From Clostridium facile (GTDB taxonomy: Bacteria > Bacillota > Clostridia > Oscillospirales > Ruminococcaceae), in NCBI RefSeq assembly GCF_014297275.1, contig NZ_JACOQK010000001.1, positions 1,033,603 through 1,065,602 on the forward strand: 32,000 nt of DNA. The letters are read 5' to 3'. The notes under the pieces were generated by a model. The model did no database searches. It saw only the letters and a program-made list of their open reading frames with translations, and was not told where the DNA came from. Shown here piece after piece: positions 16,172 through 29,999 of this stretch. Numbering within the stretch: the stretch's first letter is position 1; the number at the start of each line of letters is the position of its first letter. Position numbers and translations under genes: made by a program.

Positions 16172-16745
16172 GCTGTTTGGAATTGAGATACGGCTGAACT
16201 TTTTGTTTTTTGCTGTGCTTACTGTGATTTTGTTGACTGACCAGACTGGGATACCTGTATGGGCACTGATTGCTTCCTGCATCCATGAATGCGGCCATAT
16301 GGTGGCGTTTTTCTGTTTTCACCAGACTCCCCGTTTGATCTCGTTTGAATTAGGCGGAATCCGCATGCAAGGCCAGAGAATGGAACAGCTAAAAACTTGG
16401 CAGGAAGCAGTGATTCTTCTGGCGGGCAGCGGGGTGAATTTTCTGGTATCCTTCCTCCATCTGGCAGTGCAACAAAATCTGTTTGCCAGTATTCATTTAC
16501 TGATTGGCTGTTTTAACCTGCTCCCAGTAAAATCCCTGGATGGAGGGAAATTATTGGAATTGCTGTTCCAATGTATCTTCCCGTTCCACCTTGCCTATCG
16601 GTCCGTTCAGATATGCTCCTGGGGATTCTGCCTATTGTTGCTTATTTTTGGAGGATATTTAGCGTATTATTTGAATTTCACCCTGTTGGCATTTGGAATT
16701 TATCTGTTGATTTCTTTGCTGGCAGAACATAGAAAACGGGCATAA
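16158..16745 (+). CDS. M50-family site-2 intramembrane metalloprotease (SpoIVFB-like)
   Basis: 195 aa: KLFGIEIRLNFLFFAVLTVILLT...ALIASCIHECGHMVAF (HExxH) and LIGCFNLLPVKSLDGGKLLELL (NxxPxxxLDGG); start overlaps the 3' end of the M23 gene. Confidence 0.88.
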   Translation: MLRFKLFGIEIRLNFLFFAVLTVILLTDQTGIPVWALIASCIHECGHMVAFFCFHQTPRLISFELGGIRMQGQRMEQLKTWQEAVILLAGSGVNFLVSFLHLAVQQNLFASIHLLIGCFNLLPVKSLDGGKLLELLFQCIFPFHLAYRSVQICSWGFCLLLLIFGGYLAYYLNFTLLAFGIYLLISLLAEHRKRA

Positions 16746-16782
16746 AAAACACGGTTTCCAACAAATGGATACCGTGTTTTTT
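16744..16782 (+). terminator. Intrinsic terminator downstream of the M23/M50 operon
   Basis: 12-bp arms AAAAAACACGGT / ACCGTGTTTTTT, T-rich. Confidence 0.8.
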
Positions 16783-16829
16783 ATTTTAAGAAGGATATAA
16801 TAAAACTCCAGCTCGCTTATCGGCTTGTC

Positions 16830-16862
16830 CTTTTAATCCGCATTCCTTATACGGCAACCACA
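16830..16862 (-). repeat. Possible highly degenerate trailer-end CRISPR repeat
   Basis: CTTTTAATCCGCATTCCTTATACGGCAACCACA aligns 16/33 to the consensus, with matches concentrated in the handle-proximal TTTxAATCCxC; spacing to the next repeat (37 nt) fits array periodicity. Confidence 0.3.
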
Positions 16863-16899
16863 AAATAACAGACCTACATAAGATGAAAATCGAGGAACA

Positions 16900-17669
16900 A
16901 TTTCAATCCACGCTGCCCGTGTGGGCAGCGACGCATAGTAAAAACCTCCTATTAACTTGACTTTGTGTATTTCAATCCACGCTGCCCGTGTGGGCAGCGA
17001 CTTTGTCCCAACGGTTATGCCACTAGGGACACAAAATATTTCAATCCACGCTGCCCGTGTGGGCAGCGACGGTACACATGTTTAGACTGCAAACACGCAT
17101 TGCTATTTCAATCCACGCTGCCCGTGTGGGCAGCGACGGGTTTTATCTTTTTGACGATATTACTATTATATCATTTCAATCCACGCTGCCCGTGTGGGCA
17201 GCGACTTTAAACCTCATTGTATTAAAGATAATGTTAGGATTTCAATCCACGCTGCCCGTGTGGGCAGCGACGTTGGACGAATTGGAAAACAAAAAGGTTC
17301 AGTTGGATTTCAATCCACGCTGCCCGTGTGGGCAGCGACCTCTACGGTTTCCTGCCCGTCATAGTCCATACAATTTCAATCCACGCTGCCCGTGTGGGCA
17401 GCGACCAAAATCATCATGCCTCATGCTTGATATGCCATTATTTCAATCCACGCTGCCCGTGTGGGCAGCGACCTGCCGCTGGTTTTTTGCCATCCAGCAT
17501 GGAATATTTCAATCCACGCTGCCCGTGTGGGCAGCGACTTCTTGCCATGCAACAGTATAGCGGTACAAATATTTCAATCCACGCTGCCCGTGTGGGCAGC
17601 GACTGCTTTTCACTCCATATTATTTTATTCAATTCTATTTCAATCCACGCTGCCCGTGTGGGCAGCGAC
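16900..17669 (-). CRISPR. Type I-C CRISPR array: 12 identical 33-bp repeats, 11 spacers
   Basis: Plus-strand repeat ATTTCAATCCACGCTGCCCGTGTGGGCAGCGAC (crRNA sense GTCGCTGCCCACACGGGCAGCGTGGATTGAAAT) starting at 16900, 16969, 17038, 17105, 17173, 17239, 17307, 17373, 17440, 17506, 17571, 17637; spacers 36,36,34,35,33,35,33,34,33,32,33 nt. Orientation inferred from cas2-side leader and the conserved GTGGATTGAAA 3' end. Confidence 0.99.
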
Positions 17670-17838
17670 CGCAAAATATGGCAATAATGAGAAACTACAA
17701 CCTAGATATTGCGGCAATGTTCTGATAACATCAAAATTACATCGCTTAATTAGGATGTATTTTTGCCATATTCCGCATTTTTTGGTGCGAATACATGGGG
17801 TTTTTATGAGAGCTTATGGTTCGCACCAACCCACAAGC
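17670..17838 (-). promoter_or_regulatory. CRISPR leader between cas2 and the array
   Basis: 169-bp noncoding AT-rich region on the cas2 side of the array, containing two pairs of 10-bp inverted repeats. Confidence 0.8.
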
Positions 17839-18129
17839 TTAAATTAAGAGCTCCCCTTCCAGTTCCAGGCTATCTTTCACCCCGTAATGCTCCACTTTTT
17901 TCTGGTACTGTTCTCCTAAATAATAGAAGCGGATGCTGTCCTTTTTCTCGTCAATATGACGGAGGAGCTTTTCTTTTACTTCACGGCTTTTGGCTGCGTC
18001 CATGATACATTCAAATACAGAGTTCTGCACCCGCTGGCCATAATTTTCACATTCTTTTGCCACCTTACGCAGGCGCTTTTTACCCGCTTCTGTTTCGGTG
18101 TTCACATCATAGGTGATTAAAACCAACAT
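17839..18129 (-). CDS. cas2: CRISPR-associated endoribonuclease Cas2
   Basis: 96 aa MLVLITYDVNTETEAGKKRLRKVAKECENYGQRVQNSVFECIMDAAKSREVKEKLLRHIDEKKDSIRFYYLG. Confidence 0.98.
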   Translation of the reverse strand: MLVLITYDVNTETEAGKKRLRKVAKECENYGQRVQNSVFECIMDAAKSREVKEKLLRHIDEKKDSIRFYYLGEQYQKKVEHYGVKDSLELEGELLI

Positions 18130-18138
18130 TGCTTTCCT

Positions 18139-19170
18139 CTACTTCCACAAAAATACTGGGTATTCATCCAGCTCACCTCGGATATATCTGGCAAGCAGCA
18201 GGCTTTGGGCATAAGGGATTAGCCCCCATTCTATCTTTTCCTCCAAAAATGGATGCTTGATCACCTCTTTTTTCTTTTGCTGCCATGCCTTTATGATAGT
18301 ATTCCGACCAGAATCCGTCATCAACACAGCCCCATTTTCCTTTTGGATAAAATCAGTGGGCTTTACCATGTTCCGGTTCACCAATCCAATGACAAAACGG
18401 TCAACAAACGGGGCTCGCAGTTCTTCCATGAAATCCATTGCCAAGGAAGCCCGACCTGGCCGTTCGCAGTGGAGGAAACCTACGTAAGGGTCCAATCCGA
18501 CTGAGGATAGAGCGGAGGTACAATCATTGGCAAGAAGGGTATACAAAAAGGAAAGCATGGCATTCATATTGTCCAAGGGGGGACGGCGGTTCCGTTCACG
18601 AAAGAAAAAATCCTGCTTGTTCCGCAAAATCAACTGGTCGATCATCGAAAAGTACTGACTGGCAGCATTTCCCTCAATTCCCCTGATTTCGTCCAACGAG
18701 CTACTTTCCATTAACTGATTGATAGAACCCGCAAGGTTGGAACTGACCTTTTTCAATTCTTCTACATCTACCTGTAAGGGATGATCCCTGGTGGCACGCT
18801 CTAAAATCCATCTGCTGTTATGGAGTTTTCCCACAATCATATTCCTAGCGATCCTTACTGACTGGGTTTCGTCATCCGAAATCCGGTACTGCTGTTTGCG
18901 CAGCACCACATTGCCTTTCATTTCCCCGGCAACACTAGCTAAGAACCTGCCATGCTGGCTCATAAAACAGAGGGAAATATTGTGTTTGACACATGCTCCC
19001 ATCAAGGCGGGACTGGCACCGGTGTACCCAAATGTAACTATCCCCTCCAAGTTGTGCAGAGGAACTCTGGCAACCGTTTTCCCCTGTTCCAGTACCAGTA
19101 CGGTTTCCCCTTCCAACGCCAGATATCGCTCGGGGGAAACTACGTAAAGGGTGTTTAATAATTTTCTCAT
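18139..19170 (-). CDS. cas1: CRISPR-associated integrase Cas1 (type I-C)
   Basis: 343 aa MRKLLNTLYVVSPERYLALEGETVLVLEQGKTVARVPLHNLEGIVTFGYTGASPALMGACVKHNISLCFMSQHGRFLA... Confidence 0.98.
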   Translation of the reverse strand: MRKLLNTLYVVSPERYLALEGETVLVLEQGKTVARVPLHNLEGIVTFGYTGASPALMGACVKHNISLCFMSQHGRFLASVAGEMKGNVVLRKQQYRISDDETQSVRIARNMIVGKLHNSRWILERATRDHPLQVDVEELKKVSSNLAGSINQLMESSSLDEIRGIEGNAASQYFSMIDQLILRNKQDFFFRERNRRPPLDNMNAMLSFLYTLLANDCTSALSSVGLDPYVGFLHCERPGRASLAMDFMEELRAPFVDRFVIGLVNRNMVKPTDFIQKENGAVLMTDSGRNTIIKAWQQKKKEVIKHPFLEEKIEWGLIPYAQSLLLARYIRGELDEYPVFLWK

Positions 19171-19841
19171 GGCTCCTCCTCCCCGGTTTGCCTCCTGATA
19201 TAATCATGGACAGAAGGGCGTTTTAACAATTTTGGCAGGCAAATTTCCTTTAAGGAACAGGCGTTGCAGGCTTTTGTTCGTTTGACCATTGGCGTATGTC
19301 GCCGTTGAAACAAATCGTGCATCTGGGCGCATACATTCTCCAGTTTTTGACGAAACTCCTGGGTAATCTCCACCTTTTCCCGGTGCCGTGTGGCACCATA
19401 ATACAGATATCCATATGGGATATCGGTACACAGCATCTCTTCCAGGCAAACTGCTTGCGCCACAAGCTGGAGCCTGTCCGCATCGCTGATTTTGGGTTCC
19501 CCTTTTTTGTACTCCACCGGAACAACCCGGTAAAATCCTTCTTTTTGGAACAGGGAGATCCCTTCCTGCTGGGTGCAGCGGTGGAACTCCACTACATCGC
19601 AAATCCCGCTGATTCCTAATTTTGCGGAAAACACCCGCATCTCCCGGGAAATGAGCAGTTGTCCCCTGCTCTCCAAAGTTGGTCCCTCATGGGCTCTCTG
19701 GTGCAGAATGTTCCCCTCTATGGTTCGCAGGTTATCCGCCCACTGCTCTTCGATTTCAATCAACGCCCACTGCCGCTTGCAAAACACAAAGTGCTGTATC
19801 CCAGAGAGCATCAAGAAATCTTCCTCTTTATATTCCGTCAT
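19167..19841 (-). CDS. cas4: CRISPR-associated nuclease Cas4
   Basis: 224 aa: SGIQHFVFCKRQWALIEIEEQW...VVPVEYKKGEPK...C-terminal cysteines KACNACSLKEIC. Confidence 0.97.
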   Translation of the reverse strand: MTEYKEEDFLMLSGIQHFVFCKRQWALIEIEEQWADNLRTIEGNILHQRAHEGPTLESRGQLLISREMRVFSAKLGISGICDVVEFHRCTQQEGISLFQKEGFYRVVPVEYKKGEPKISDADRLQLVAQAVCLEEMLCTDIPYGYLYYGATRHREKVEITQEFRQKLENVCAQMHDLFQRRHTPMVKRTKACNACSLKEICLPKLLKRPSVHDYIRRQTGEEEP

Positions 19842-20691
19842 ATTCTTCTACTGTTAACCCTTCCAGCGGGGTGAGGGTAATCTGGTAGTCCTCTATGCTT
19901 TTTGGGGTAAGAACCCCTTCTTTTTTGGCAACGCAAAGGCTATCGTGAACCTTTTTGGTGGAATACTGGCCAATTTTGCAGTTGTGTTCCCACCAGTAGA
20001 GCTTATGAATCTCCATACTGCCTTCCGGACGTGCGGAGGAACTATCGTTGACAAAAAGGGTGCGGATAGCTTCTTTGATTTTTTCCGCGTCCTCCTGGGT
20101 AAATCCGGTTTTTTCTGCAAGCTGGACGTTGATGCTCCCTTTTAAGAGGTATACACCAAAATCAACCCGGTGCTTATCCCCCATGGTGTCTGATGCTTTC
20201 CCTCCTTTGGTATCCTCACTGTTGACGCTTTTGGTGATTTTGATAGTGGTGATATTGATTGGATCCACGCTAAATGCTGGATGGAGGGAAACCGGCCCCC
20301 TTATTCCGAGGGAAAGTTCTTCCCCCTTAAAAGCGAATACTTGTCCAAAGCTGCGTACATCCATCCACTCTTGGCAAGCGGCTTGATAGGCTACTTGCGC
20401 ATTGGCTTTTTTCCCTTTTTTCAGTTCTGTGCCAAAGGCGGGGTTTTTATCCGCCCGCTCTTTCAGGCTGTCATAACCATCCACATTTTTGTCATCGGAC
20501 TGGACAAAGATGGATTCCCCCATATCCATCAGGCGGTTTCTGATTTTCCGTTTGATGCAGACATCCGAAATCTCCCCAAACCCTTCATCAGTGATTCTTG
20601 GCATATTTCCGTTGAGGGGATCGCCGTTGCAGTTTGCGTTATTTACTGTAATAATTGCCTCAAAATCAATTTTATTTTGTAATACACCCAT
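19828..20691 (-). CDS. cas7: Type I-C Cascade subunit Cas7 (Csd2)
   Basis: 287 aa: IDFEAIITVNNANCNGDPLNGNMPRITDEGFGEISDVCIKRKIRNRLMDMG... Confidence 0.97.
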   Translation of the reverse strand: MGVLQNKIDFEAIITVNNANCNGDPLNGNMPRITDEGFGEISDVCIKRKIRNRLMDMGESIFVQSDDKNVDGYDSLKERADKNPAFGTELKKGKKANAQVAYQAACQEWMDVRSFGQVFAFKGEELSLGIRGPVSLHPAFSVDPINITTIKITKSVNSEDTKGGKASDTMGDKHRVDFGVYLLKGSINVQLAEKTGFTQEDAEKIKEAIRTLFVNDSSSARPEGSMEIHKLYWWEHNCKIGQYSTKKVHDSLCVAKKEGVLTPKSIEDYQITLTPLEGLTVEEYDGI

Positions 20692-20692
20692 T

Positions 20693-22651
20693 TTATTCTT
20701 CCTCCATCTTCTGTGATTTTTTTATTTGCCGTTCTTTGATAATTTGTATCCTTTGGCTGCAAAAACCAGATAAAAATGCCGCCCCCAAATTTCGTTTCTT
20801 TTTCAGTTCTTTCGTATCAATTCTACTGACCATTTCGTCTAATAAATCGCATAAATCGCAGAGTTTTATCCCCTTGGATTGCATAATGTAAACATTCACC
20901 TTATTGTAAAGTACTGTTAACGTGTCGTAAGGGCTCTGGCAAAACCGCGTAAGAAGCCTTCTCGCATTGGTAGGGCGAACTTCTTTATAAGATTCGTTGT
21001 CATCCGGCTTATTTTTTCCCCACAGCACCTGATTTTCAATAGCATCAGCAAGTGCCACAAATCTTCCGCAATTGTATTCAATATCATCAGTTTCTTTTAC
21101 ACAATTAAAAACACCATTTTCTCCCATAACAAATTCCTCCATTCTATAAATCAACGGATTGTCCTTATCGTAATCATATAAATAACGGTTATATAAGGCG
21201 CATGCCGCAAAAGCAACTTGTTCCCATAAGGACCCATAGCCATAGTTTTGTGGGAATTTCGCCTTGTTGACAGCAGCTTTTACAATATCCCGTGGAATTT
21301 TCGCCCCATCACAGATACAGGGCAGAATCCGCTGCACAGTATCTGCTAACAGCTTATTACTTCCCACTTCCAGATAGTTGCCCCTGCTCACCCCAAACGC
21401 CGCTTTTGCCAGATTCACTGGGGACGGCGCACCAAAATGGTATTCTTGTTTTTTTATCTCGTTGTAATAACGGATATTCCAGGCGCAGGTTTTGTGCCAT
21501 CGCTCTATGTTGTCAATCAGTTCGTTTCCTTGCAGTCCATTGTACTCTCGGTTGAAAACCACCGCCATCCTTCCGGTAGTAGCAGCATCCAACCCCAACA
21601 GCACCAGCTGGCTGTCCTTCCTGATTTCAGCGTGATAACCTGTAATCGCCATTTTAAACTGTTGGGCAAACTCCTGTTCAGTATTAATTTCCACACTCTG
21701 CTCCTCAAAGCAGAACTGGAATGTATCCGCCATGGGGTCGGGGAGTTCTTCCCCATCCACTCCCCACAGAACGAATACACGGTCACCAATTCTGGCAACT
21801 TGCTTCTGGTTCTGAATCAGCCATTTTAAGGCGTTATGGGCTTTTTGGGACGCCTCATAGGATATGGTATACGCTTGTTCCGCTGTTTCAAACCGTCCAC
21901 GGAAAGTAAAATTGGTGGTATCATTGGCAGAAATCAATTTTGCCTTATCACCGGAATTTCTGATTTTAGACGGATGGATGGTGCAGGCCCTTACATGATT
22001 TCCTGTGACATAACAGAGTTTTTTGCTGCCCTCCTGGCTCAAGTAGTAGTTTGTATATTGGTCTTGCAGTTTTCCATCCTGCCACAACGCGGGGACAGAA
22101 TCAATCCCAATCACCGAAAACCGTACAAAGGCATCGGATTGGTTGCCCACCGGCAGTTTTAAATTAGGCTGGTTTTCCCATTTCTTTGTCAACCTTCCGT
22201 TTTCATCCACCGAAAAAATACCCTGTTCCACCAAATCGTGAATCAATGTTTTCTGGTTCAGATACTGGTAAACCGCTTTGACCTTTGGGTTGCTGTACGA
22301 AGATTCACACCATGCTTGTAATTGTTCCATATACGCCTGATAGGCTTCGGCGTTATCCTCTTTGCAGAACCGGGGATAATCCCCCGCTATGTACTTTAGT
22401 TTATCGAATAAAGGATGGGGGCATGGTTTGGATGTCCGGTTGGCGGAATATTCAGTTACCGGTATCACCGTATCCGCTTGATCTTTTTCCACAGGGGTTG
22501 CAGAGATAAACTGCCCCTCCTTGCCCAGCTTGACATCCACATGCGCCTGTTGGGTGGAGAATCCCACCTTAAGCAGCCCTCTTTGGGTGAAATTAGCGGG
22601 GTCTTTTTCCAGCCTTTCATAGGTACGGTACAACGTCATCATGTAACTCAT
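20693..22651 (-). CDS. cas8c: Type I-C Cascade large subunit Cas8c (Csd1)
   Basis: 652 aa: MSYMMTLYRTYERLEKDPANF...VKAVYQYLNQKTLIHDLVEQGIF...FSVIGIDSVPALWQDGKLQDQYTNYY...LCYVTGNHVRACTIHPSKIRNSGDKAKLISANDTTNFTFRGRF. Confidence 0.97.
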   Translation of the reverse strand: MSYMMTLYRTYERLEKDPANFTQRGLLKVGFSTQQAHVDVKLGKEGQFISATPVEKDQADTVIPVTEYSANRTSKPCPHPLFDKLKYIAGDYPRFCKEDNAEAYQAYMEQLQAWCESSYSNPKVKAVYQYLNQKTLIHDLVEQGIFSVDENGRLTKKWENQPNLKLPVGNQSDAFVRFSVIGIDSVPALWQDGKLQDQYTNYYLSQEGSKKLCYVTGNHVRACTIHPSKIRNSGDKAKLISANDTTNFTFRGRFETAEQAYTISYEASQKAHNALKWLIQNQKQVARIGDRVFVLWGVDGEELPDPMADTFQFCFEEQSVEINTEQEFAQQFKMAITGYHAEIRKDSQLVLLGLDAATTGRMAVVFNREYNGLQGNELIDNIERWHKTCAWNIRYYNEIKKQEYHFGAPSPVNLAKAAFGVSRGNYLEVGSNKLLADTVQRILPCICDGAKIPRDIVKAAVNKAKFPQNYGYGSLWEQVAFAACALYNRYLYDYDKDNPLIYRMEEFVMGENGVFNCVKETDDIEYNCGRFVALADAIENQVLWGKNKPDDNESYKEVRPTNARRLLTRFCQSPYDTLTVLYNKVNVYIMQSKGIKLCDLCDLLDEMVSRIDTKELKKKRNLGAAFLSGFCSQRIQIIKERQIKKSQKMEEE

Positions 22652-23376
22652 TGGGCGCCACCCCCTTCCTGGTAACCCTCCAGAAGCCCAGGCTCCTGCA
22701 AACCGGAAAAGTTGGAAGAATCAAACCGTTTCGGTTTCATCTCCCTCACTGGAATCCGTTGGACACAATCCTCCTGTTTACAGTAGCGAATCACGCCCCG
22801 CTCCATTTTAGGATACCAGAACAACGCCTCCAATTGGTTGGTACCGTTCTGGTCAGGGTAAACAAACGAGTGGAACATCAGCCCAAAGTCCATCTGCTCC
22901 AAATCGCTGTAACAGCTCTGTTCCTCCCCTGTAACTGGTTCCACGTATGCCTGGCATTCCCGCGCCCCTAAAAAGACATCCCGCCTGCCTCCTTTTTCGA
23001 TGCAGCGTTTCGCAACCCAGTAGTGTTTATGCTCGTTCCAGTCCTGTTTTAAATCGGGACGATATAGGTTGAACTCAAAATGCGCCTTGACAATGTAGGA
23101 CACATTTGATAAGTACGTGTAATACGCCAAATCGTTGCCGCCGTAGTATTTGATGGGGCGAATGCCCTTCCGCTCGGTACGGATGGGGTTTAAAACCGTT
23201 GCTTCATCGATTATCCATAAAATAGACGGCTTCCAGTACACCGATGACACAATCCCTTTTAACGCCTCAGCAGTGGGAATCATCAAGGTGGATTTTTCCC
23301 CACCAATTTTGGTCATGGGGTCGGTGAATAAGGCGAATCTACCAGAAACCTTAAAAGTGACCTGATTTGGTTTCAT
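22648..23376 (-). CDS. cas5: Type I-C Cas5c (Csd5), predicted crRNA-processing subunit
   Basis: 242 aa: MKPNQVTFKVSGRFALFTDPMTKIGGEKSTLMIPTAEALKGIVSSVYWKPSILWIIDEATVLNPIRTERKG...; RBS AAAGGAGG. Confidence 0.96.
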   Translation of the reverse strand: MKPNQVTFKVSGRFALFTDPMTKIGGEKSTLMIPTAEALKGIVSSVYWKPSILWIIDEATVLNPIRTERKGIRPIKYYGGNDLAYYTYLSNVSYIVKAHFEFNLYRPDLKQDWNEHKHYWVAKRCIEKGGRRDVFLGARECQAYVEPVTGEEQSCYSDLEQMDFGLMFHSFVYPDQNGTNQLEALFWYPKMERGVIRYCKQEDCVQRIPVREMKPKRFDSSNFSGLQEPGLLEGYQEGGGAQ

Positions 23377-23393
23377 TGCTGTTCCTCCTTTCT

Positions 23394-23429
23394 AACTTTT
23401 CTTATACTATTTTTCACTTATTTTGTAAA
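23394..23429 (-). promoter_or_regulatory. Predicted sigma-A-type promoter of cas5-cas8c-cas7-cas4-cas1-cas2
   Basis: Minus strand TTTACA (-35, plus 23424-23429), 17-nt spacer, TATAAG (-10, plus 23401-23406); expected start site ~23394, followed by AAAGGAGG and the cas5 ATG. Confidence 0.85.
23400..23417 (+). promoter_or_regulatory. Protospacer-like site in the cas5 operon promoter matching the crRNA-like RNA
   Basis: TCTTATACTATTTTTCAC vs TCTTATACTATCTTTAAC at 23514-23531: 16/18 identities, first 11 contiguous, preceded by AACTTT (a TTC trinucleotide occupies 23399-23401). Confidence 0.8.
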
Positions 23430-23474
23430 GGGAAATTTTTCATAAAAAAACAGCTTTCTTCTTGTACATTTTTA

Positions 23475-23483
23475 TGGTATACT
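23475..23483 (+). promoter_or_regulatory. Extended -10 promoter of the crRNA-like RNA
   Basis: TGGTATACT (TGn + TATACT); -35 is weak (TTTCTT at 23455-23460 with 17-nt spacing). Expected start falls at about G23490, the first base of the repeat-like sequence. Confidence 0.7.
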
Positions 23484-23489
23484 AAAAGC

Positions 23490-23594
23490 GTCGCAATTTG
23501 CGTGGATTGAAAATCTTATACTATCTTTAACGAAAGAACTGCTTTGTAACAGGTGAGGACGCTATCCTTGTCTGTTGCAAAGCTTTTCTTTTTT
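23490..23594 (+). ncRNA. Predicted crRNA-like regulatory RNA (CreR/CreA-like): degenerate repeat + pseudo-spacer + intrinsic terminator, opposite to the cas genes
   Basis: 23490-23514 GTCGCAATTTGCGTGGATTGAAAAT keeps both repeat ends (GTCGC... and ...GCGTGGATTGAAA) but has a 4-bp hairpin (CGCA-ATT-TGCG) instead of 8 bp (CGCTGCCC-ACAC-GGGCAGCG); then ~27-nt spacer-like segment; then terminator. Confidence 0.8.
23541..23594 (+). terminator. Strong intrinsic terminator of the crRNA-like RNA
   Basis: Arms GCTTTGTAACAG (23541-23552) / CTGTTGCAAAGC (23572-23583), continuing inward through three wobble pairs and AGGA/TCCT to loop CGCTA, followed by TTTTCTTTTTT just before the cas3 stop codon. Confidence 0.85.
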
Positions 23595-23597
23595 CTC

Positions 23598-25946
23598 TTA
23601 AAACAGCGCCAGATCATCTTTCAGGGTTACCCCCAGGCAAGCGTCATAATGGAGGGACCCCATCAGGTATGCCCCTGTCACCTGATTTTGGGTGATATCA
23701 TTCTGTAACGTCTGGAACTGGTATCGGTACAGATTGACCGAATATTTCCGCAATTGGGAAAGTAATCTTTTCTTTTCCTCCATAGGTGAAAACTCGTTAA
23801 GCTGCTCCAGTTTTTCTATGAGTTGTAACCCCTCCCCATAAGGGACAATCACTGGGATGGTATCGTTTCCAATCACCTCAAAGGGTTGCGCTGCCGATTG
23901 GAATTTTACTGTAGTAAATAATGGGCTTTTTCTGATTTTATTTTGTAGTAATTCATAAATGGATACAGATCCATTCAAAGGGTAGGAAAACTGTTTGGAA
24001 ATCCGCTCATCCTGATAATAAAGCTGAAAAAACTCCTTAATAGAGGATGGAGATAAACCGTCTGAGGTCATCCGCAGCACGCTATCCGCATGGTCGATTC
24101 CAATTGGATATTCCGGCATGTTATTGTAAGAGCCTTCCTGCAATTTTACCGCATAGCAATAACCCAGTTCCTGTTCCCCATTACGGTTGACCCTACCCGC
24201 TGTCTGGGCAACCGAATCCAGACGGGTTAAGCTGCGGACCGCTGCTTCAAAGCTGATATCCACCCCAGCTTCAATGAGCGAAGTGCTGACGCAGATTAAG
24301 TCCTCCCCATCTTTTAGCGCCTGCTTTAGTTCCTTCAACACCTTGCCTCTATGTGCCTGACACAAGCGGGTACTCAAATAAAACAGATTTATCCCTTCCA
24401 GTTCGGGAGATTGGCACAGCATTTCCCAAACAGCAGCTGCGGTATCCACCTTATTCACCACTGCCAATAGGCTTTTTACCTCGCGTTTTCTCTCCAAGAG
24501 GAACTGCTGAAATTGTTCCAAGTCATATTTCTTTGGCTTATAGACCACCTGTACTCGCTTGAGCTGCTCAAAATTGCGGCTGACATTCTTCACAATTTCA
24601 GCATCTTCCGATTCTTTTATCATGGGATGCCCCAGAAGATTCGTATAAGGCTGGGTAGCAGTACAAAGTACTAGGGTAGAATTCCCTACCTGGCGCAGAA
24701 AATTGGCTGCGCTTGTGAACAAATCCATACATTTGGCAGGAAGGGTTTGGATTTCATCAAAAATAATGGTGGCATTCATCAGATGGTGGAGACGGCGCAT
24801 GTCCTGAGTACCTCGATGGTAGAAGGTGTTTAAAAACTGCACCATAGTCGTAAAAATGATATCGCTCTCCCAACGTTCGGTAAGCAGTTTATAATCCTCC
24901 TGCTGGTTATCCTCCAACAGGTTGGAATGGTGCTCCAGCAAATCGCACTGGTAGCCCAGAGCTTTCCGAATTTGTTCAGCGTTTTGCTCGATGATTGAAG
25001 TATATGGAATGACATAGACAATCCGCTGTTTTTGATTTAGCCGGTTATGGTTCAGGGCAAACCGCATACTGGAAAGGGTTTTCCCTCCCCCTGTTGGAAC
25101 AGTAAGACGGTAGATACCCGTCCCTCTATTGGACGCAAGAAAACATTCATCCGAGATTGCTTGCCGAATCCGGTTTACCTGCTCTGTTTTGGGTTCCGCA
25201 GATGATTTCTGGCTGAGTTGGGACAGATAAACCTCAAACCTACCTTGGTATTCCTCCCATGCTGGGAATTGCTGTTCCCGTTCTATTACAGGGGAGATCC
25301 CCCTGTTTTCCTCAAAGCACATGCTGTCCATCCGGTCGGCGTCAATCAGTATGCTGTAGATGGTTTTGATCAGCAGGTGGTAACAGAACACCCCATCTTT
25401 CATTTTTGTAACCCCTTCGATAATAGGAACCAGTTCTTCTAACGCTTGGTGGAACAGTTTGGTAAGATCTTCTTGGATTTCCTGGGAAAACCGTTGGTAT
25501 GCCTGTTCTATCCTGTGTTGGTCTAGTTTTTCGAACCGCTCCAAAAGAGGGGATTGATTACAGACATCCACACAATCTTTTAATCCGCCATGGTGGTAGC
25601 AGCACGCCATGGCGATGATTTCCACGATGGCGCCACGCCGGCTTTTTCCCGGATAAAAGGTTTGGAAAAAATATTTTGCCCCATATACCCCATGGTCAAA
25701 ATCGGATTTCCGTTTCTGGGAAAGGTACTGCTTTGGGTTTTGCACTGCCCGCTGCCGTTCCCCTTCGATAAAATCCTGGAACTGCTGGTCGTATTTGCCC
25801 ATATCATGGAGCAAACCCGCCAGGCGCATGGTTTGAGAAAGGTTTAATTTTGCCCCGAATGATTCTGACAGACTGGCAACCCCTAAAATATGCTCCCGTA
25901 ACGGCTGCTGTTTTCCATCCTGTAGCCGGAACCTTGCCTGATACAT
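23598..25946 (-). CDS. cas3: CRISPR-associated helicase-nuclease Cas3 (N-terminal HD + DExD/H helicase)
   Basis: 782 aa: LAGLLHDMGKYDQQFQDF (HD), YRLTVPTGGGKTLSSMRFAL (Walker A), IIFDEIQTL (Walker B), TSLIEAGVDISFEAAVR, QTAGRVNRNGE. Confidence 0.98.
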   Translation of the reverse strand: MYQARFRLQDGKQQPLREHILGVASLSESFGAKLNLSQTMRLAGLLHDMGKYDQQFQDFIEGERQRAVQNPKQYLSQKRKSDFDHGVYGAKYFFQTFYPGKSRRGAIVEIIAMACCYHHGGLKDCVDVCNQSPLLERFEKLDQHRIEQAYQRFSQEIQEDLTKLFHQALEELVPIIEGVTKMKDGVFCYHLLIKTIYSILIDADRMDSMCFEENRGISPVIEREQQFPAWEEYQGRFEVYLSQLSQKSSAEPKTEQVNRIRQAISDECFLASNRGTGIYRLTVPTGGGKTLSSMRFALNHNRLNQKQRIVYVIPYTSIIEQNAEQIRKALGYQCDLLEHHSNLLEDNQQEDYKLLTERWESDIIFTTMVQFLNTFYHRGTQDMRRLHHLMNATIIFDEIQTLPAKCMDLFTSAANFLRQVGNSTLVLCTATQPYTNLLGHPMIKESEDAEIVKNVSRNFEQLKRVQVVYKPKKYDLEQFQQFLLERKREVKSLLAVVNKVDTAAAVWEMLCQSPELEGINLFYLSTRLCQAHRGKVLKELKQALKDGEDLICVSTSLIEAGVDISFEAAVRSLTRLDSVAQTAGRVNRNGEQELGYCYAVKLQEGSYNNMPEYPIGIDHADSVLRMTSDGLSPSSIKEFFQLYYQDERISKQFSYPLNGSVSIYELLQNKIRKSPLFTTVKFQSAAQPFEVIGNDTIPVIVPYGEGLQLIEKLEQLNEFSPMEEKKRLLSQLRKYSVNLYRYQFQTLQNDITQNQVTGAYLMGSLHYDACLGVTLKDDLALF

Positions 25947-26319
25947 CTTAAAATTCTCCTTTACCGAATTGACTTATTGTAAATGTTAGATATTGTTTCC
26001 ATTATAACACAATTTTATGAATTTTTCTGTCTAAACAAGGGGATTATCGTCTATTTTTGGAATTTTTTATTTTATTCCCGATCATAAGGGAAATAGATCC
26101 AATGTCCCTACCAAAAAAGTAATCAAAATAAAAAATATGGACCAACCTATGAATTCAGTCTTTTTATGTTGACTGTTTGTATACAATCCTTTAGAAAATT
26201 CCATTTGACAAACTGTAAAATTGATATTTTGACCCGTTTTTAAATTATTTTTTAGTTTTTTAATCAATTTGTTATAATTATATCGTTTAATATTTTTTGT
26301 ATTTGGAGGGAAAATCGCT

Positions 26320-26718
26320 ATGCGAAAAGCAATACGAGAATTTTTGATTTATGACGCCTTTGTTGCGGTTACTATGATTGCAAGATATTTTGTAGTGAAT
26401 GATATTGAGTGGGGATATTTTTGGCTTTGCGTGGTCTATTTTCCAACTGTTTTTTTGTTTCAACCAGTTTTTGGGTTACTACTGGGATACCGGGCAATAA
26501 AAAAATATAATATCCCCTGCTTGCGGTTTTTAGCGTTAAGCCTGCTGTTCTTTCTGATCAACGGTTTTACATTTTCTATTCTATCCATAGGAAGTGCGTA
26601 CACATATGGATTTATAGATACTTTTTGGAACACCGGTTTGATATATGCGTGCATATTCATTGCGTTTTACTGGTTGTCCTATTTTATTACAAAATTTTAT
26701 TTGAAGTTTTATTTTTAA
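26320..26718 (+). CDS. Hypothetical polytopic membrane protein, 132 aa
   Basis: Good RBS (TTGGAGGGAAAA) and four hydrophobic segments; followed by a terminator. Confidence 0.7.
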   Translation: MRKAIREFLIYDAFVAVTMIARYFVVNDIEWGYFWLCVVYFPTVFLFQPVFGLLLGYRAIKKYNIPCLRFLALSLLFFLINGFTFSILSIGSAYTYGFIDTFWNTGLIYACIFIAFYWLSYFITKFYLKFYF

Positions 26719-26794: not shown

Positions 26795-26825
26795 AGAACC
26801 CTCTACCAAAAAAGTAGAGGGTTCT
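26795..26825. terminator. Intrinsic terminator
   Basis: 12-bp perfect arms AGAACCCTCTAC / GTAGAGGGTTCT, 7-nt loop. Confidence 0.8.
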
Positions 26826-27086: not shown

Positions 27087-29999
27087 TTATTGAAATGGCT
27101 GTTCTATCTGCTGTTTTAAAAAGAGCAGGTTACGCAAACAAGAAAGGGTTTGTGGATCGGATTCCCCCAGCGTATCCCTGAGGATGAAAAAGGAGCGTTC
27201 CAGATAATCCAATGCTTTACAAAGCTTCCTTTGCATAAAGTAGGCATGGCCAATTTCATTGTAATCCACAGCGATTTCCGGATGCAGTTCTCCAAGGATA
27301 TGTTGATGAATCCGTAAGGCTTTTGGGTAAAAGCCAATCGCTTTATCATACAAACATTGGATTTCATATAAATCCCCAATTAAGATATATTCCTCTGCTA
27401 CCTCCATAGATTCTTCCCCAAAAGCCTTCTGGCTGGCACGTAAAGAGTTTTGGTAAGCTTCCAGCGCATTTGAATATTCCTTTTGGAGGCTGTAAAGATG
27501 ACCAATATTATGGAAAAGGGTTGTGATTGCCTGAATATTTTCTTTTGTCTGCCCTTGTTCGATTTGCAGGCATTTTTGATAACACTCCAACGCTTTGGCA
27601 TAATTTTTCTGGCAACTATATAAATAGGCGATTGCGTTATACACCATGGACACGTTAGTATCCTGTTCTCCATACAGGTTCTGGGTTACTTTTAGCGCTT
27701 TCTGATAATATTCCAACGCCTTTGGATATCGTTTCCAATCCTGGTACATTTGAGCAATATTGTTATAGTAGGTGACAATATTGGGATGGTTTTCCCCCAA
27801 CAATTCCAGCTCTATTTCCAGTGCTGTTTGAAAATACCTCACCGCATTTGGATAATCTCCCATACCATAATAGGCTCCACCAATATTGTTATAGATCGTT
27901 GCGGTGGATTTATGAAATCCTTCTGTAAGATTTTGGTCGATTTCCAACGCCTTTTGGTAATACTCCAATGCTGTAGTATATTCTCCTTTTCGATGGTGTA
28001 CCATTCCAATATTCAGATAATTGACAATAATATTGGGATGCTGTTCCCCAAAAACCCTGCGGTTGATTGCTAGCCCTTTTTGATAATATTCTAATGCTAG
28101 TCCTAATTTTTGTTGCCTGCTATAGACACCTCCAATGTTATGGTAACAGGCTGCGGTTTCTGGATGTTCTTCCCCCAGTATCTTCTGGTTGATTTGCAAC
28201 GCTTTCGTATAATATTCTAAAGCGGTTTCATTATCCCCAAAGATAACATAAATCGAACCCATATTATTGTATACCGATGCTGCTGTATGCCCCTTGGAAT
28301 ATTTTTCGTCCAAAGCAATCGCCTTCTGATAATATTCCAATGCTGCGGCATAATCCCCTTTTTCAAAATAAAGCAATCCAATATTTCCATAAATGGAATA
28401 CAGCCGCAGCTCTTCTTTTATTTTTTTCTGATGAATATTCAGTGCTTTATTGTAATATTCCAGTGCAACATCATACTGGCACAGGTATTGGTATACCATA
28501 CCAATATTTTCATACTCTGTAGCAACCTGCAAGCACTCTTCTCCTAAGGTGTTCCGGACAATTTGCAAGGATTTTTGGTAATACGCCAAAGCGTCCATAT
28601 ATTTGCCACAATCGCAGTATACTAGCCCCATACTATTGTAAACAGATGCAGTATACACATCCTCTTTTCCAACTGTTTGGAGAAAAATGTTAAGCGCTTT
28701 CTGATCATATTCCAACGCTTTTGGAAAGTTGGCTCCTTGGCGAAGCAATTCAGCGTACTTGAGGAAAAAATTAGCATATGCCACGTCATCTCCTTCAATC
28801 CGTTTCGCTACAGCGTCTCCAAACTGGGAAATCTCCTGTCTTTGCTGGCAGGTATCGCAGTAGGAACCTAGATAATCGAAAATTGCTTCCAGATAACACC
28901 AGCAGTCCTTGATGTTGGGGGTTAGGTCATTCTCTAGAATATCTGCCATCACAGGATGGAGGGAATAGTGGGTGTTTTCGTTCCGTACCCATCCACGGGC
29001 TACCAACTGTTTCAGTTGGGGTAGTTTGGTTGATTCCATCCCACACCATTTTAGGAACTGCTTCCCGTCCACACCAGTGTAAGGAACCAACAATAAATTC
29101 CTTAACAGATAAATTTGATCCTCCGACAGTTTCTCCCTGCTAATATCAAAAATAGCGCGTAAATGTTGGTACATACTTTTTTGGGATTGCTTTCCGTCCT
29201 TATTCAAGGGGATCACGGTATCCTGATGATCTTTGAGTTTTTCCCTTAGTTCCTCCAGCATTTCCGCCAGGGGGATTTCTTCCTCCCGTATCTGTTTTGC
29301 CAGAAGCTCCACCGTCATGGTGTGTCGATCCACCAGCTGAATCAATTCATCCAGTTGGGCAAGTTCATCCTCTGTAAAATCCGTGCTTCCGTAAGAATGA
29401 AAAAACACCTCCCTAGCCTGTTCCGATTCCAATGGCATCACCTTAACCTGCTGTTTCCCATACTGACTCCAATCATTCCGGGTAGTAAACAACAGATACC
29501 ATCCCATTGATTCCAGATCTTCCATCTCATCGGATTCTGTTTCATTGAAATTATCCACGATGAGTAAAACCCTTTGCTGGGCACACAATTGTTTTATCAC
29601 GGCCTTTTTTTGCAAATAATACTGTTCTAATTCTTCCGCTTTCGCTTTCGCTGGAATAGAAAAACCTCCCAAAGTTATCCCTAGAACAACATCCCGCAAA
29701 CTGGAAGCGTAATTTGCCCATACTACACTACCGTTCCACCGGGTGGCATATTGTTTGGCGAGCTCACTTTTCCCGATGCCGCCTATCCCCCAAAGAAATA
29801 CCGTCCTGCCTTCCTGGAATTTTTGTTCCAGTGTTTCCAACTCCTGTTCCCTGCCAACAAACCCTTCTTTCAGCGGGATGGCTGAGCAGAGGATACTGTA
29901 TTGTTTTTCCCCGTTGGGATGAAGATGGATATTGTATTCCGAAAGGTAGGTTGGCCCCTGGTTTTTCATCTCCTCAATCCGGATTCCGTCCTGTCCCAT
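27087..29999 (-). CDS. STAND-class (NB-ARC-like) NTPase with long C-terminal TPR array
   Basis: 970 aa: FVGREQELETLEQKFQEGRTVFLWGIGGIGKSELAKQYA (P-loop), RVLLIVDNFNE (Walker B), LLFTTRNDW (sensor); then many ~42-aa TPRs of the form YNNIGxxYxxxGxYxxALEYYQKALEIxxxxxGExHP. RBS GGAGG before ATG 29999. Confidence 0.88.
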   Translation of the reverse strand: MGQDGIRIEEMKNQGPTYLSEYNIHLHPNGEKQYSILCSAIPLKEGFVGREQELETLEQKFQEGRTVFLWGIGGIGKSELAKQYATRWNGSVVWANYASSLRDVVLGITLGGFSIPAKAKAEELEQYYLQKKAVIKQLCAQQRVLLIVDNFNETESDEMEDLESMGWYLLFTTRNDWSQYGKQQVKVMPLESEQAREVFFHSYGSTDFTEDELAQLDELIQLVDRHTMTVELLAKQIREEEIPLAEMLEELREKLKDHQDTVIPLNKDGKQSQKSMYQHLRAIFDISREKLSEDQIYLLRNLLLVPYTGVDGKQFLKWCGMESTKLPQLKQLVARGWVRNENTHYSLHPVMADILENDLTPNIKDCWCYLEAIFDYLGSYCDTCQQRQEISQFGDAVAKRIEGDDVAYANFFLKYAELLRQGANFPKALEYDQKALNIFLQTVGKEDVYTASVYNSMGLVYCDCGKYMDALAYYQKSLQIVRNTLGEECLQVATEYENIGMVYQYLCQYDVALEYYNKALNIHQKKIKEELRLYSIYGNIGLLYFEKGDYAAALEYYQKAIALDEKYSKGHTAASVYNNMGSIYVIFGDNETALEYYTKALQINQKILGEEHPETAACYHNIGGVYSRQQKLGLALEYYQKGLAINRRVFGEQHPNIIVNYLNIGMVHHRKGEYTTALEYYQKALEIDQNLTEGFHKSTATIYNNIGGAYYGMGDYPNAVRYFQTALEIELELLGENHPNIVTYYNNIAQMYQDWKRYPKALEYYQKALKVTQNLYGEQDTNVSMVYNAIAYLYSCQKNYAKALECYQKCLQIEQGQTKENIQAITTLFHNIGHLYSLQKEYSNALEAYQNSLRASQKAFGEESMEVAEEYILIGDLYEIQCLYDKAIGFYPKALRIHQHILGELHPEIAVDYNEIGHAYFMQRKLCKALDYLERSFFILRDTLGESDPQTLSCLRNLLFLKQQIEQPFQ

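Follow-up and report, generated by a model that had tools for sequence, protein, structure and literature searches.

The window analysed here, a stretch of 32,000 nucleotides (nt) of Clostridium facile (contig NZ_JACOQK010000001.1), carries on its minus strand a complete type I-C CRISPR-Cas system, with NCBIfam matches above the curated cut-offs. The gap of 221 nt between cas3 and cas5c houses a putative gene of a short CRISPR RNA (crRNA)-like RNA and is otherwise devoid of genes. The guide of this RNA matches a site directly upstream of cas5c, and judging from its sequence the element is very probably a CreR-type, cas-regulating crRNA-like RNA (crlRNA, or solitary repeat unit, SRU) of the type I-C system. 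An initial annotation of the window had proposed that Cascade, the effector complex, is led by this guide to repress its own operon. All of our in silico tests supported that model, namely the occurrence of the element in 29 loci, guide-target matches in 23 of these 29 against 0 of 624 control combinations, a periodic pairing profile, and the comparison of closely related haplotypes.

The type I-C locus

The predicted repressed unit, cas5c-cas8c-cas7-cas4-cas1-cas2 (17839-23376), was delimited through NCBIfam matches and lies on the minus strand, as do all of the cas genes. It is composed of cas5c (22648-23376), cas8c (20693-22651), cas7 (19828-20691), cas4 (19167-19841), cas1 (18139-19170), and cas2 (17839-18129). 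The I-C-specific models for Cas5c, Csd1, Csd2, and Cas1c all scored above their cut-offs, and the Cas5c protein of the window is identical to WP_186996300.1 of Clostridium facile. The surroundings are chromosomal, with PcrA/UvrD, sulfatase, and peptidase genes near the cas operon. Meanwhile, cas3 (HD nuclease and helicase, 23598-25946) is located upstream of the crRNA-like element, displays a promoter region of its own, and is followed after its stop codon by a hairpin shared with the element. Hence, cas3 is probably outside the repressed unit.

Anatomy of the crRNA-like RNA

The anatomy of the element was read directly from the DNA. An extended -10 promoter, TGgTATACT, is found at 23475-23483 on the plus strand, and the RNA is predicted to start near G23490. 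At this position begins the pseudo-repeat (psiR), GTCGCAATTTGCGTGGATTGAAAA (23490-23513, plus strand), which comparison with the array repeat GTCGCTGCCCACACGGGCAGCGTGGATTGAAAT (sense orientation) resolves into GTCGCAATTTGCG plus the handle TGGATTGAAAA. The pseudo-repeat is a truncated CRISPR repeat in which the initial 5 nt of the array repeat and GCG are preserved, and its 11-nt handle (23503-23513) agrees with that of the array repeat at positions 1-10. A mini hairpin is formed by CGCA (23492-23495) pairing with TGCG (23499-23502), and it folds as predicted; compared to the hairpin of the array repeat, these outer base pairs have been kept and the inner stem has been lost. Cas5c would be predicted to cut after G23502, adjoining the mini hairpin. 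The initial annotation had placed a repeat-like element before the guide, which this truncated repeat, with its hairpin and largely preserved handle, bears out. It is the only repeat-like copy outside of the array, and there is no second repeat.

The pseudo-spacer (psiS), that is, the guide TCTTATACTATCTTTAAC, occupies 23514-23531 on the plus strand. Position 23514 is the guide start in the canonical register, since it lies exactly 11 nt past the hairpin base. An unpaired stretch extends beyond the guide to 23540, ahead of the core hairpin. A terminator scan and folding identified this 3' hairpin as an intrinsic terminator (23541-23594, plus strand), with a stem of 19 bp (23541-23583) followed by a T run, and the fold of the whole RNA had a z of -5.1. 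On the opposite strand the same hairpin comes after the stop codon of cas3, and it is conserved in close relatives. An Rfam search of positions 16500-26500 returned no relevant family.

A guide-matched site upstream of cas5c

The target (protospacer), TCTTATACTATTTTTCAC, is located at 23400-23417 on the plus strand. It is identical to the guide at 16 of 18 positions, the first 11 of them contiguous, just as the initial annotation had counted. Paired guide positions are 1-11, 13-15, and 17-18, and the similarity stops after position 18, in agreement with the earlier claim that pairing is limited to the part next to the protospacer-adjacent motif (PAM). As the plus strand is the guide-identical one, pairing of the RNA would be with the minus strand, which is the sense strand of cas5c. 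The exact 11-mer occurs in the 32-kb window only at these two sites (23400 and 23514). A second target was sought throughout the window, and only one site with a single mismatch was found (26823), flanked by GGT and located after a terminator; none was flanked by a PAM. When the intergenic region (221 nt) was shuffled at the mononucleotide level, 0.15% of the shuffles contained a site that fitted the guide at all ten seed positions (1-5 and 7-11), and 0.005% (5e-5) contained one that was also flanked by TTC or TTT. A match by chance is unlikely.

Seen from the cas5c ATG, the target is 24-41 nt upstream, immediately past the ribosome-binding site AGGAGG (23384-23389, minus strand), and it is 114 nt away from the guide. 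A candidate cas5c promoter can be read at 23401-23429 on the minus strand, with a -35 TTTACA (23424-23429), a spacer of 17 nt, and a -10 TATAAG (23401-23406). This TTTACA-17-TATAAG arrangement is the best candidate and appears to be the only plausible cas5c promoter in the haplotype of the window. An open reading frame (ORF) of nine codons (MKNFPLQNK, 23414-23443, minus strand) overlaps the -35; it lacks a Shine-Dalgarno sequence and is unlikely to be meaningful.

A family of elements in distant type I-C loci

Scans of genomes and metagenomes for relatives of Cas5c provided 160 loci with at most 65% identity to the Cas5c of the window; nothing above 65% was found in these scans, and closer relatives were reached only via a protein cluster. 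We observed 29 distinct elements of one design among I-C loci, the window counted, with a conserved architecture. They read GT-stem-loop-stem-G followed by TGGATTGAAAN, are divergent from cas5c, and usually lie 120-200 nt upstream of it. The stems differ between loci yet stay paired (CGCT/AGCG, CACC/GGTG, CGTCTT/AAGACG). Of the 29 elements, 26 have the motif TGnTAnnnT, which resembles an extended -10, a short distance before the pseudo-repeat, mostly ending a few nt ahead of its GTC.

Some of the related loci displayed ORFs between the RNA and cas5c. L025, L038, L053, and L127 carry an IS3-type, OrfA-like helix-turn-helix ORF, with the pseudo-repeat 580-950 nt upstream, and L045, L058, and L143 carry ORFs of 72-82 amino acids (aa) instead. 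These may be insertions or regulated cargo.

With the guide taken to begin directly after the 11-nt handle in all family elements, 23 of the 29 guides agreed at all ten seed positions (1-5 and 7-11) with a TTC-flanked site upstream of cas5c in the same locus. When guides were instead combined with foreign loci, such a 10/10 match was seen in 0 of 624 combinations. Among 21 non-redundant pairs, the match frequency was 100% at positions 1-5 and 90-100% at positions 7-11, values that are partly due to construction because targets were chosen by maximal seed match; it dropped to 24% at position 6 and 43% at position 12, was 71-86% at positions 13-16, and fell to background from position 17 onwards. 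The informative parts of this profile are the cross-locus control and the positions untouched by that choice (6 and 12-16). Pairing in the family thus spans approximately 16 nt with a periodicity of 6 nt that leaves positions 6 and 12 unconstrained, in line with the bases that are flipped out in Cascade. A formal count on 35 guide-target pairs gave a covariation score of 0.724, compared to 0.203 in shuffles and 0.10-0.23 in slid registers. For all relatives, the 90 nt downstream were also folded by minimum free energy to gauge guide length, and these folds were too noisy to be used.

The targets come in two arrangements, both at the cas5c promoter. In the first, which includes the window, the site shares the strand of the RNA and is found between the ribosome-binding site of cas5c and the -10; in L063 it begins 8 nt after a promoter that matches the consensus at 12 of 12 positions. 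In the second, found in L098, L100, L105, L121, L123, L126, L142, L150, and others, the cas5c-sense strand carries TTC and the protospacer, which reaches up to the -35 or overlaps it and is located between the divergent promoters.

Guide-target haplotypes in close relatives

Close relatives were taken from the 90%-identity protein cluster of the window Cas5c, which holds proteins of C. facile and Massilioclostridium coli. This set is made up of 20 loci, 18 of which have both the pseudo-repeat and the target, with Cas5c 97-100% identical. The 18 loci fall into four main haplotypes plus variants, and each guide fits its own target. H1 (the window, L167, and L169) combines the guide TCTTATACTATCTTTAAC with the target TCTTATACTATTTTTCAC; H2 (L166 and L168) has the guide TCTTATATTACATTTAAC and a target beginning TCTTATATTACTTTTA; H3 (ten loci) has the guide ATTGTGTTGTATTTTGAC and the target ATTGTTTTGTATTTTGAT; and H4 (L179 and L180) has the guide TCTTGTATTGCATTTAAC and the target TCTTGTATTGCATTTAAT. 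Between H1 and H2, positions 8 and 11 are altered in guide and target alike, and the same holds for positions 5, 8, 10, and 11 between H1 and H4. H3 displays a wholly different guide from that of H1 and still matches its own target; its position 6 is variable on both sides and never matching, with guides having G or A there and targets having T or C.

The extent of this divergence can be seen when H2 is compared to H3, as their guides differ at 11 of 17 positions and the flanking cas5c and cas3 sequence by only 1.7%. As many as 11-12 of the 17 nt of guide and target can differ across loci whose flanking cas genes are approximately 98% identical. Guide-target divergence far above that of the flanks is suggestive of diversifying selection on the pair, or of swapped alleles. 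The covariation of guide and promoter site across homologous loci, which had been put forward as a check of the model, was therefore observed both in the four haplotypes and in the family-wide score, with a discrepancy at position 8 of a single close relative, L161.

The haplotypes also differ in their promoters. H2-H4 hold 25 extra nt between the common -35 TTTACA and the target (at 23417/23418 in window coordinates), as seen by comparing L162, L166, and L179. This segment supplies a -10 TAATAT (TTTACA-17-TAATAT), which the consensus scan calls in L179, and the Cascade site of H2-H4 is just downstream of that -10, across the transcription start. The segment is absent from the window, and TTTACA therefore stands exactly 17 nt from TATAAG, inside the target. 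The earlier claim that the site covers the whole -10 and most of the promoter spacer (11 nt) holds for the window haplotype, and not for its sister haplotypes. In either geometry, bound Cascade should block transcription. The promoter of the window haplotype may have been rebuilt by a 25-nt deletion, so that its -10 is now inside the Cascade site.

The PAM and the CRISPR array

In the canonical register the PAM of the window target is TTT (23397-23399, plus strand), and it is conserved in all close haplotypes. The initial annotation had suggested that shifting the guide start by 2 nt would provide the consensus TTC. We rejected this shift, as the handle has 11 nt in all 29 elements; moreover, H3 reads CTTT followed by ATTG, with no C on hand for a shifted TTC. 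TTT ranked next after TTC in both interference and acquisition by the I-C system of L. pneumophila (PMC5602111), was second for Cascade binding and repression in that of X. albilineans, and weakly active in that of B. halodurans (10.1101/2021.10.18.464778).

The CRISPR array of the window (16830-17669, minus strand), identified through repeat comparison, has 12 repeats with spacers of approximately 32-40 nt. Its repeat has the form GTCGC...ATTGAAAT, as for type I-C, and a degenerate terminal repeat, GTGGTTGCCGTATAAGGAATGCGGATTAAAAG (16830-16861, minus strand), ends the array after a last spacer of 40 nt. Eight spacers were scanned for exact matches in IMG/VR, and seven of them had no exact viral match. 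The remaining one, spacer 5 (17331-17363, minus strand; 1507-1539 in L181), matched contig UViG_2788500145_000004 at 33 of 33 positions. The 5' flank of this protospacer is TTT, not TTC, and it is the sole natural protospacer found for the array; as a single case, it is suggestive of TTT as the PAM. For PAM inference, the entire array was also compared to phage genomes by BLAST, with no informative match. TTT is thus found at all regulatory targets of the C. facile / Massilioclostridium lineage and at one natural protospacer.

Variation around cas3

Four contigs from different samples (L175-L178) share a 2.3-kb deletion that corresponds to 23901-26204 of the window and removes the cas3 promoter and approximately 680 N-terminal codons. 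All of the Cascade genes, along with the regulatory RNA and the target, are intact in these contigs. Such strains could still bind DNA and regulate, and would not be able to degrade it. Just upstream of cas3, the window holds a gene for an AAA_16 ATPase of 970 aa with many TPR repeats (STAND-like; 27087-29999, minus strand). A 132-aa ORF without a Pfam match (26320-26718) lies between this gene and cas3.

A model of autorepression

We propose that the extended -10 promoter would drive a plus-strand transcript of approximately 100 nt that begins at the pseudo-repeat. Cas5c would cleave it at the base of the mini hairpin, leaving the 11-nt handle UGGAUUGAAAA, and Cascade (Cas5c, Cas8c/Cas11, and Cas7) would assemble on this handle and the short guide, with the terminator hairpin substituting for the absent downstream repeat. 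The guide would then pair with some 16-18 nt of the site at 23400-23417, beside the TTT PAM. Cascade bound in this way would occlude the -10 and spacer of the cas5c promoter or, in the sister haplotypes, the transcription start, and either form of occlusion would lower transcription from cas5c through cas2. Since pairing ends after approximately 17 nt, no full R-loop would form, Cas3 would not be licensed, and repression would occur without self-cleavage. The outcome would be a negative feedback on the level of Cascade. According to the published CreR model, repression would ease once crRNAs titrate Cascade or anti-CRISPRs block it; for the element of the window, we infer both this relief by crRNA competition or anti-CRISPRs and the lack of Cas3 recruitment.

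Several points weigh against this model. The window has TTT where 23 other loci have the optimal TTC, and Cascade binding may therefore be weaker. The promoter taken for cas5c since the initial annotation is still the best candidate, but it is non-consensus (-10 TATAAG), and the consensus scan calls no promoter in the intergenic region of the window because this -10 lacks the final T; the assignment therefore leans on the sister haplotypes. Transcription of cas5c may in part be read-through from cas3, as the T tract of the hairpin on the minus strand is poor. The seed agreement across the family is in part due to the way in which targets were chosen, a point that the cross-locus control addresses. 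In L161 (Logan SRR36495779), whose Cas5c is identical to that of the window, target position 8 (23407) has changed from C to T and the guide is unchanged; this allele could be derepressed, an intermediate towards H2, or an assembly error. The linkage of guide and target, which are only 114 nt apart, can be explained by co-inheritance alone, although co-inheritance gives no explanation for each guide fitting its own target. Finally, transcription, Cas5c processing, Cascade loading, binding, and repression at this locus are all steps that we infer from DNA sequence.

Alternative explanations

It is very unlikely that the main role of the RNA is that of a decoy or a scaffold for assembly, either as an RNA anti-CRISPR similar to Racr or as a sink for Cascade subunits, with the promoter match being secondary. 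SRUs that sequester Cas proteins are reported from phages (PMC10651486), and the short guide with a hairpin directly after it would be compatible with such a role. However, this element is located in a chromosomal host cas locus and not in a mobile element, unlike Racr and the viral Cracr. In addition, guide-target complementarity and the PAM are clearly under selection, and a pure decoy needs neither.

More improbable still is an addiction module of the CreTA type, in which the RNA would be the antitoxin CreA, Cascade would repress the toxin CreT, and loss of Cascade would kill the cell. The RNA has the same architecture as CreA, small ORFs or an IS3-type ORF stand between the pseudo-repeat and cas5c in some of the related loci, and the intergenic region of the window includes the nine-codon ORF at 23414-23443. 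Yet the 221-nt gap is taken up by the RNA gene, two divergent promoters, and a ribosome-binding site, leaving no room for a toxin, and that ORF, the only one found in the gap, opens upstream of the -35 and is not preceded by a Shine-Dalgarno sequence. A search of the window gave no other target site, and since the target is directly upstream of the ribosome-binding site of cas5c, the controlled gene would be cas5c.

The two remaining alternatives are the least credible. A decaying orphan remnant of a repeat and spacer, with promoter similarity arising by chance or from an AT-rich, -10-like sequence (TATACT), would agree with the AT-richness of the region, the presence of TATACTA also in the RNA's own -10 (23478-23484), and the lack of an Rfam match, but is contradicted by a shuffle frequency of at most 0.0015, the locus-specific matches in 23 of 29 loci against 0 of 624 controls, the compensatory changes in close haplotypes, the mismatches at positions 6 and 12 that follow Cascade periodicity, and the conserved promoter and terminator. 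A true regulatory target elsewhere in the genome, acting in trans and making the cas5c site one of several or incidental, is allowed for by a search that covered 32 kb and by published I-C crlRNAs that regulate the cargo defence genes Nezha, Gabija, and CRISIS, but the best PAM-flanked match adjoins cas5c in all close haplotypes and in 23 distant loci, and the window has no second PAM-flanked site, the near match at 26823 having the GGT flank and following a terminator.

Relation to known systems

Autorepression by CreR has been shown experimentally for types I-B, I-E, and V-A (Liu et al. 2023, 10.1101/2023.03.10.532045), and the same work noted creA-like elements of type I-C through manual inspection only, in a supplementary figure. 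The element of the window shares with CreR a degenerate repeat-like element in a cas intergenic region with no toxin partner, a guide of limited, PAM-proximal complementarity to an effector cas promoter, and the proposed outcome, an autorepression that senses crRNA load and anti-CRISPRs. Unlike CreR, it has a single pseudo-repeat, a terminator hairpin that replaces the second repeat, and a TTT PAM. The CreR mini-CRISPR study (Liu et al. 2023) reportedly appeared later in Cell Host & Microbe.

The same design is found in the SRUs, or crlRNAs, of type I-C. These, too, are located in the cas3-cas5c interval and are built from one pseudo-repeat that is cut to an 11-nt 5' handle, with a hairpin forming the 3' end, and they share with the family described here a pairing of approximately 16 bp, free flipped positions, and a target site at a promoter. 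A Neisseria unit of this architecture, which pairs over 16 bp with a mismatch at position 6, repressed the promoter of its target, Nezha, approximately 21-fold, and compensatory mutations restored repression (10.1101/2024.12.27.630466). The Neisseria crlRNAs repress cargo defence genes (Nezha, Gabija, and CRISIS) within cas operons and use a TTC PAM, whereas the element of the window has no cargo, would target the cas5c promoter itself, and has TTT as its PAM. The first mismatch is at position 12 in the window and at position 6 in the Neisseria element.

In CreTA (Li et al. 2021), as in the window, a crRNA-like RNA guides Cascade to a promoter through partial complementarity; CreA represses a toxin gene, and the window has no toxin candidate. 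The mini-arrays surveyed by Shmakov et al. (2023, 10.1101/2023.03.03.530964) are similarly standalone and repeat-like, with spacers that partly match cas promoters next to the correct PAM, and they also display a mismatch at position 6. That survey dealt with I-B, I-D, I-E, I-F1, and V-A systems, mostly two-repeat mini-arrays that target cas8, cas10d, or cas6, and type I-C is not covered in its main text. A comparable logic is found outside of class 1 in an RNA that differs from the one described here, being a long-form tracrRNA that works with another effector in a class 2 system. This is tracr-L (Workman et al. 2021), reportedly a natural guide of partial complementarity through which the type II-A effector Cas9 represses its own promoter.

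Implications

The mechanism has already been published (CreR in 2023 and I-C crlRNAs in 2024), and no new mechanism is described here. Autorepression in type I-C had previously been mentioned only in passing, and the modest value added by our findings is a well-supported class of I-C elements predicted to regulate cas genes in many loci of Bacillota and Chloroflexota, a TTT PAM shared throughout the lineage, and a guide and target that change quickly and in concert. For annotation, they account for the orphan repeat between cas3 and cas5c, and for the engineering of I-C systems they mark a built-in site of CRISPR interference. The natural series of guide-target haplotypes and the conserved, non-canonical TTT lend themselves to studies of how the strength of repression is set and of co-evolution between the circuit and phage mimics.

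Mimic arrays of phages are reported to be directed against variant I-C loci in closely related strains (10.1101/2024.10.29.618823), and they would fit the guide-target diversity of the close haplotypes. Rather speculatively, we postulate that the guide-target pair is a fast-evolving lock and key, and that the working PAM of this lineage has moved to TTT for both regulation and immunity. The divergence of lock and key could come from diversifying selection, for example through escape from phage mimic RNAs (Cracr) that hijack autorepression. Collectively, the conserved elements suggest that the regulatory logic of CreR and crlRNAs may extend to a broad set of type I-C loci of Bacillota and Chloroflexota.

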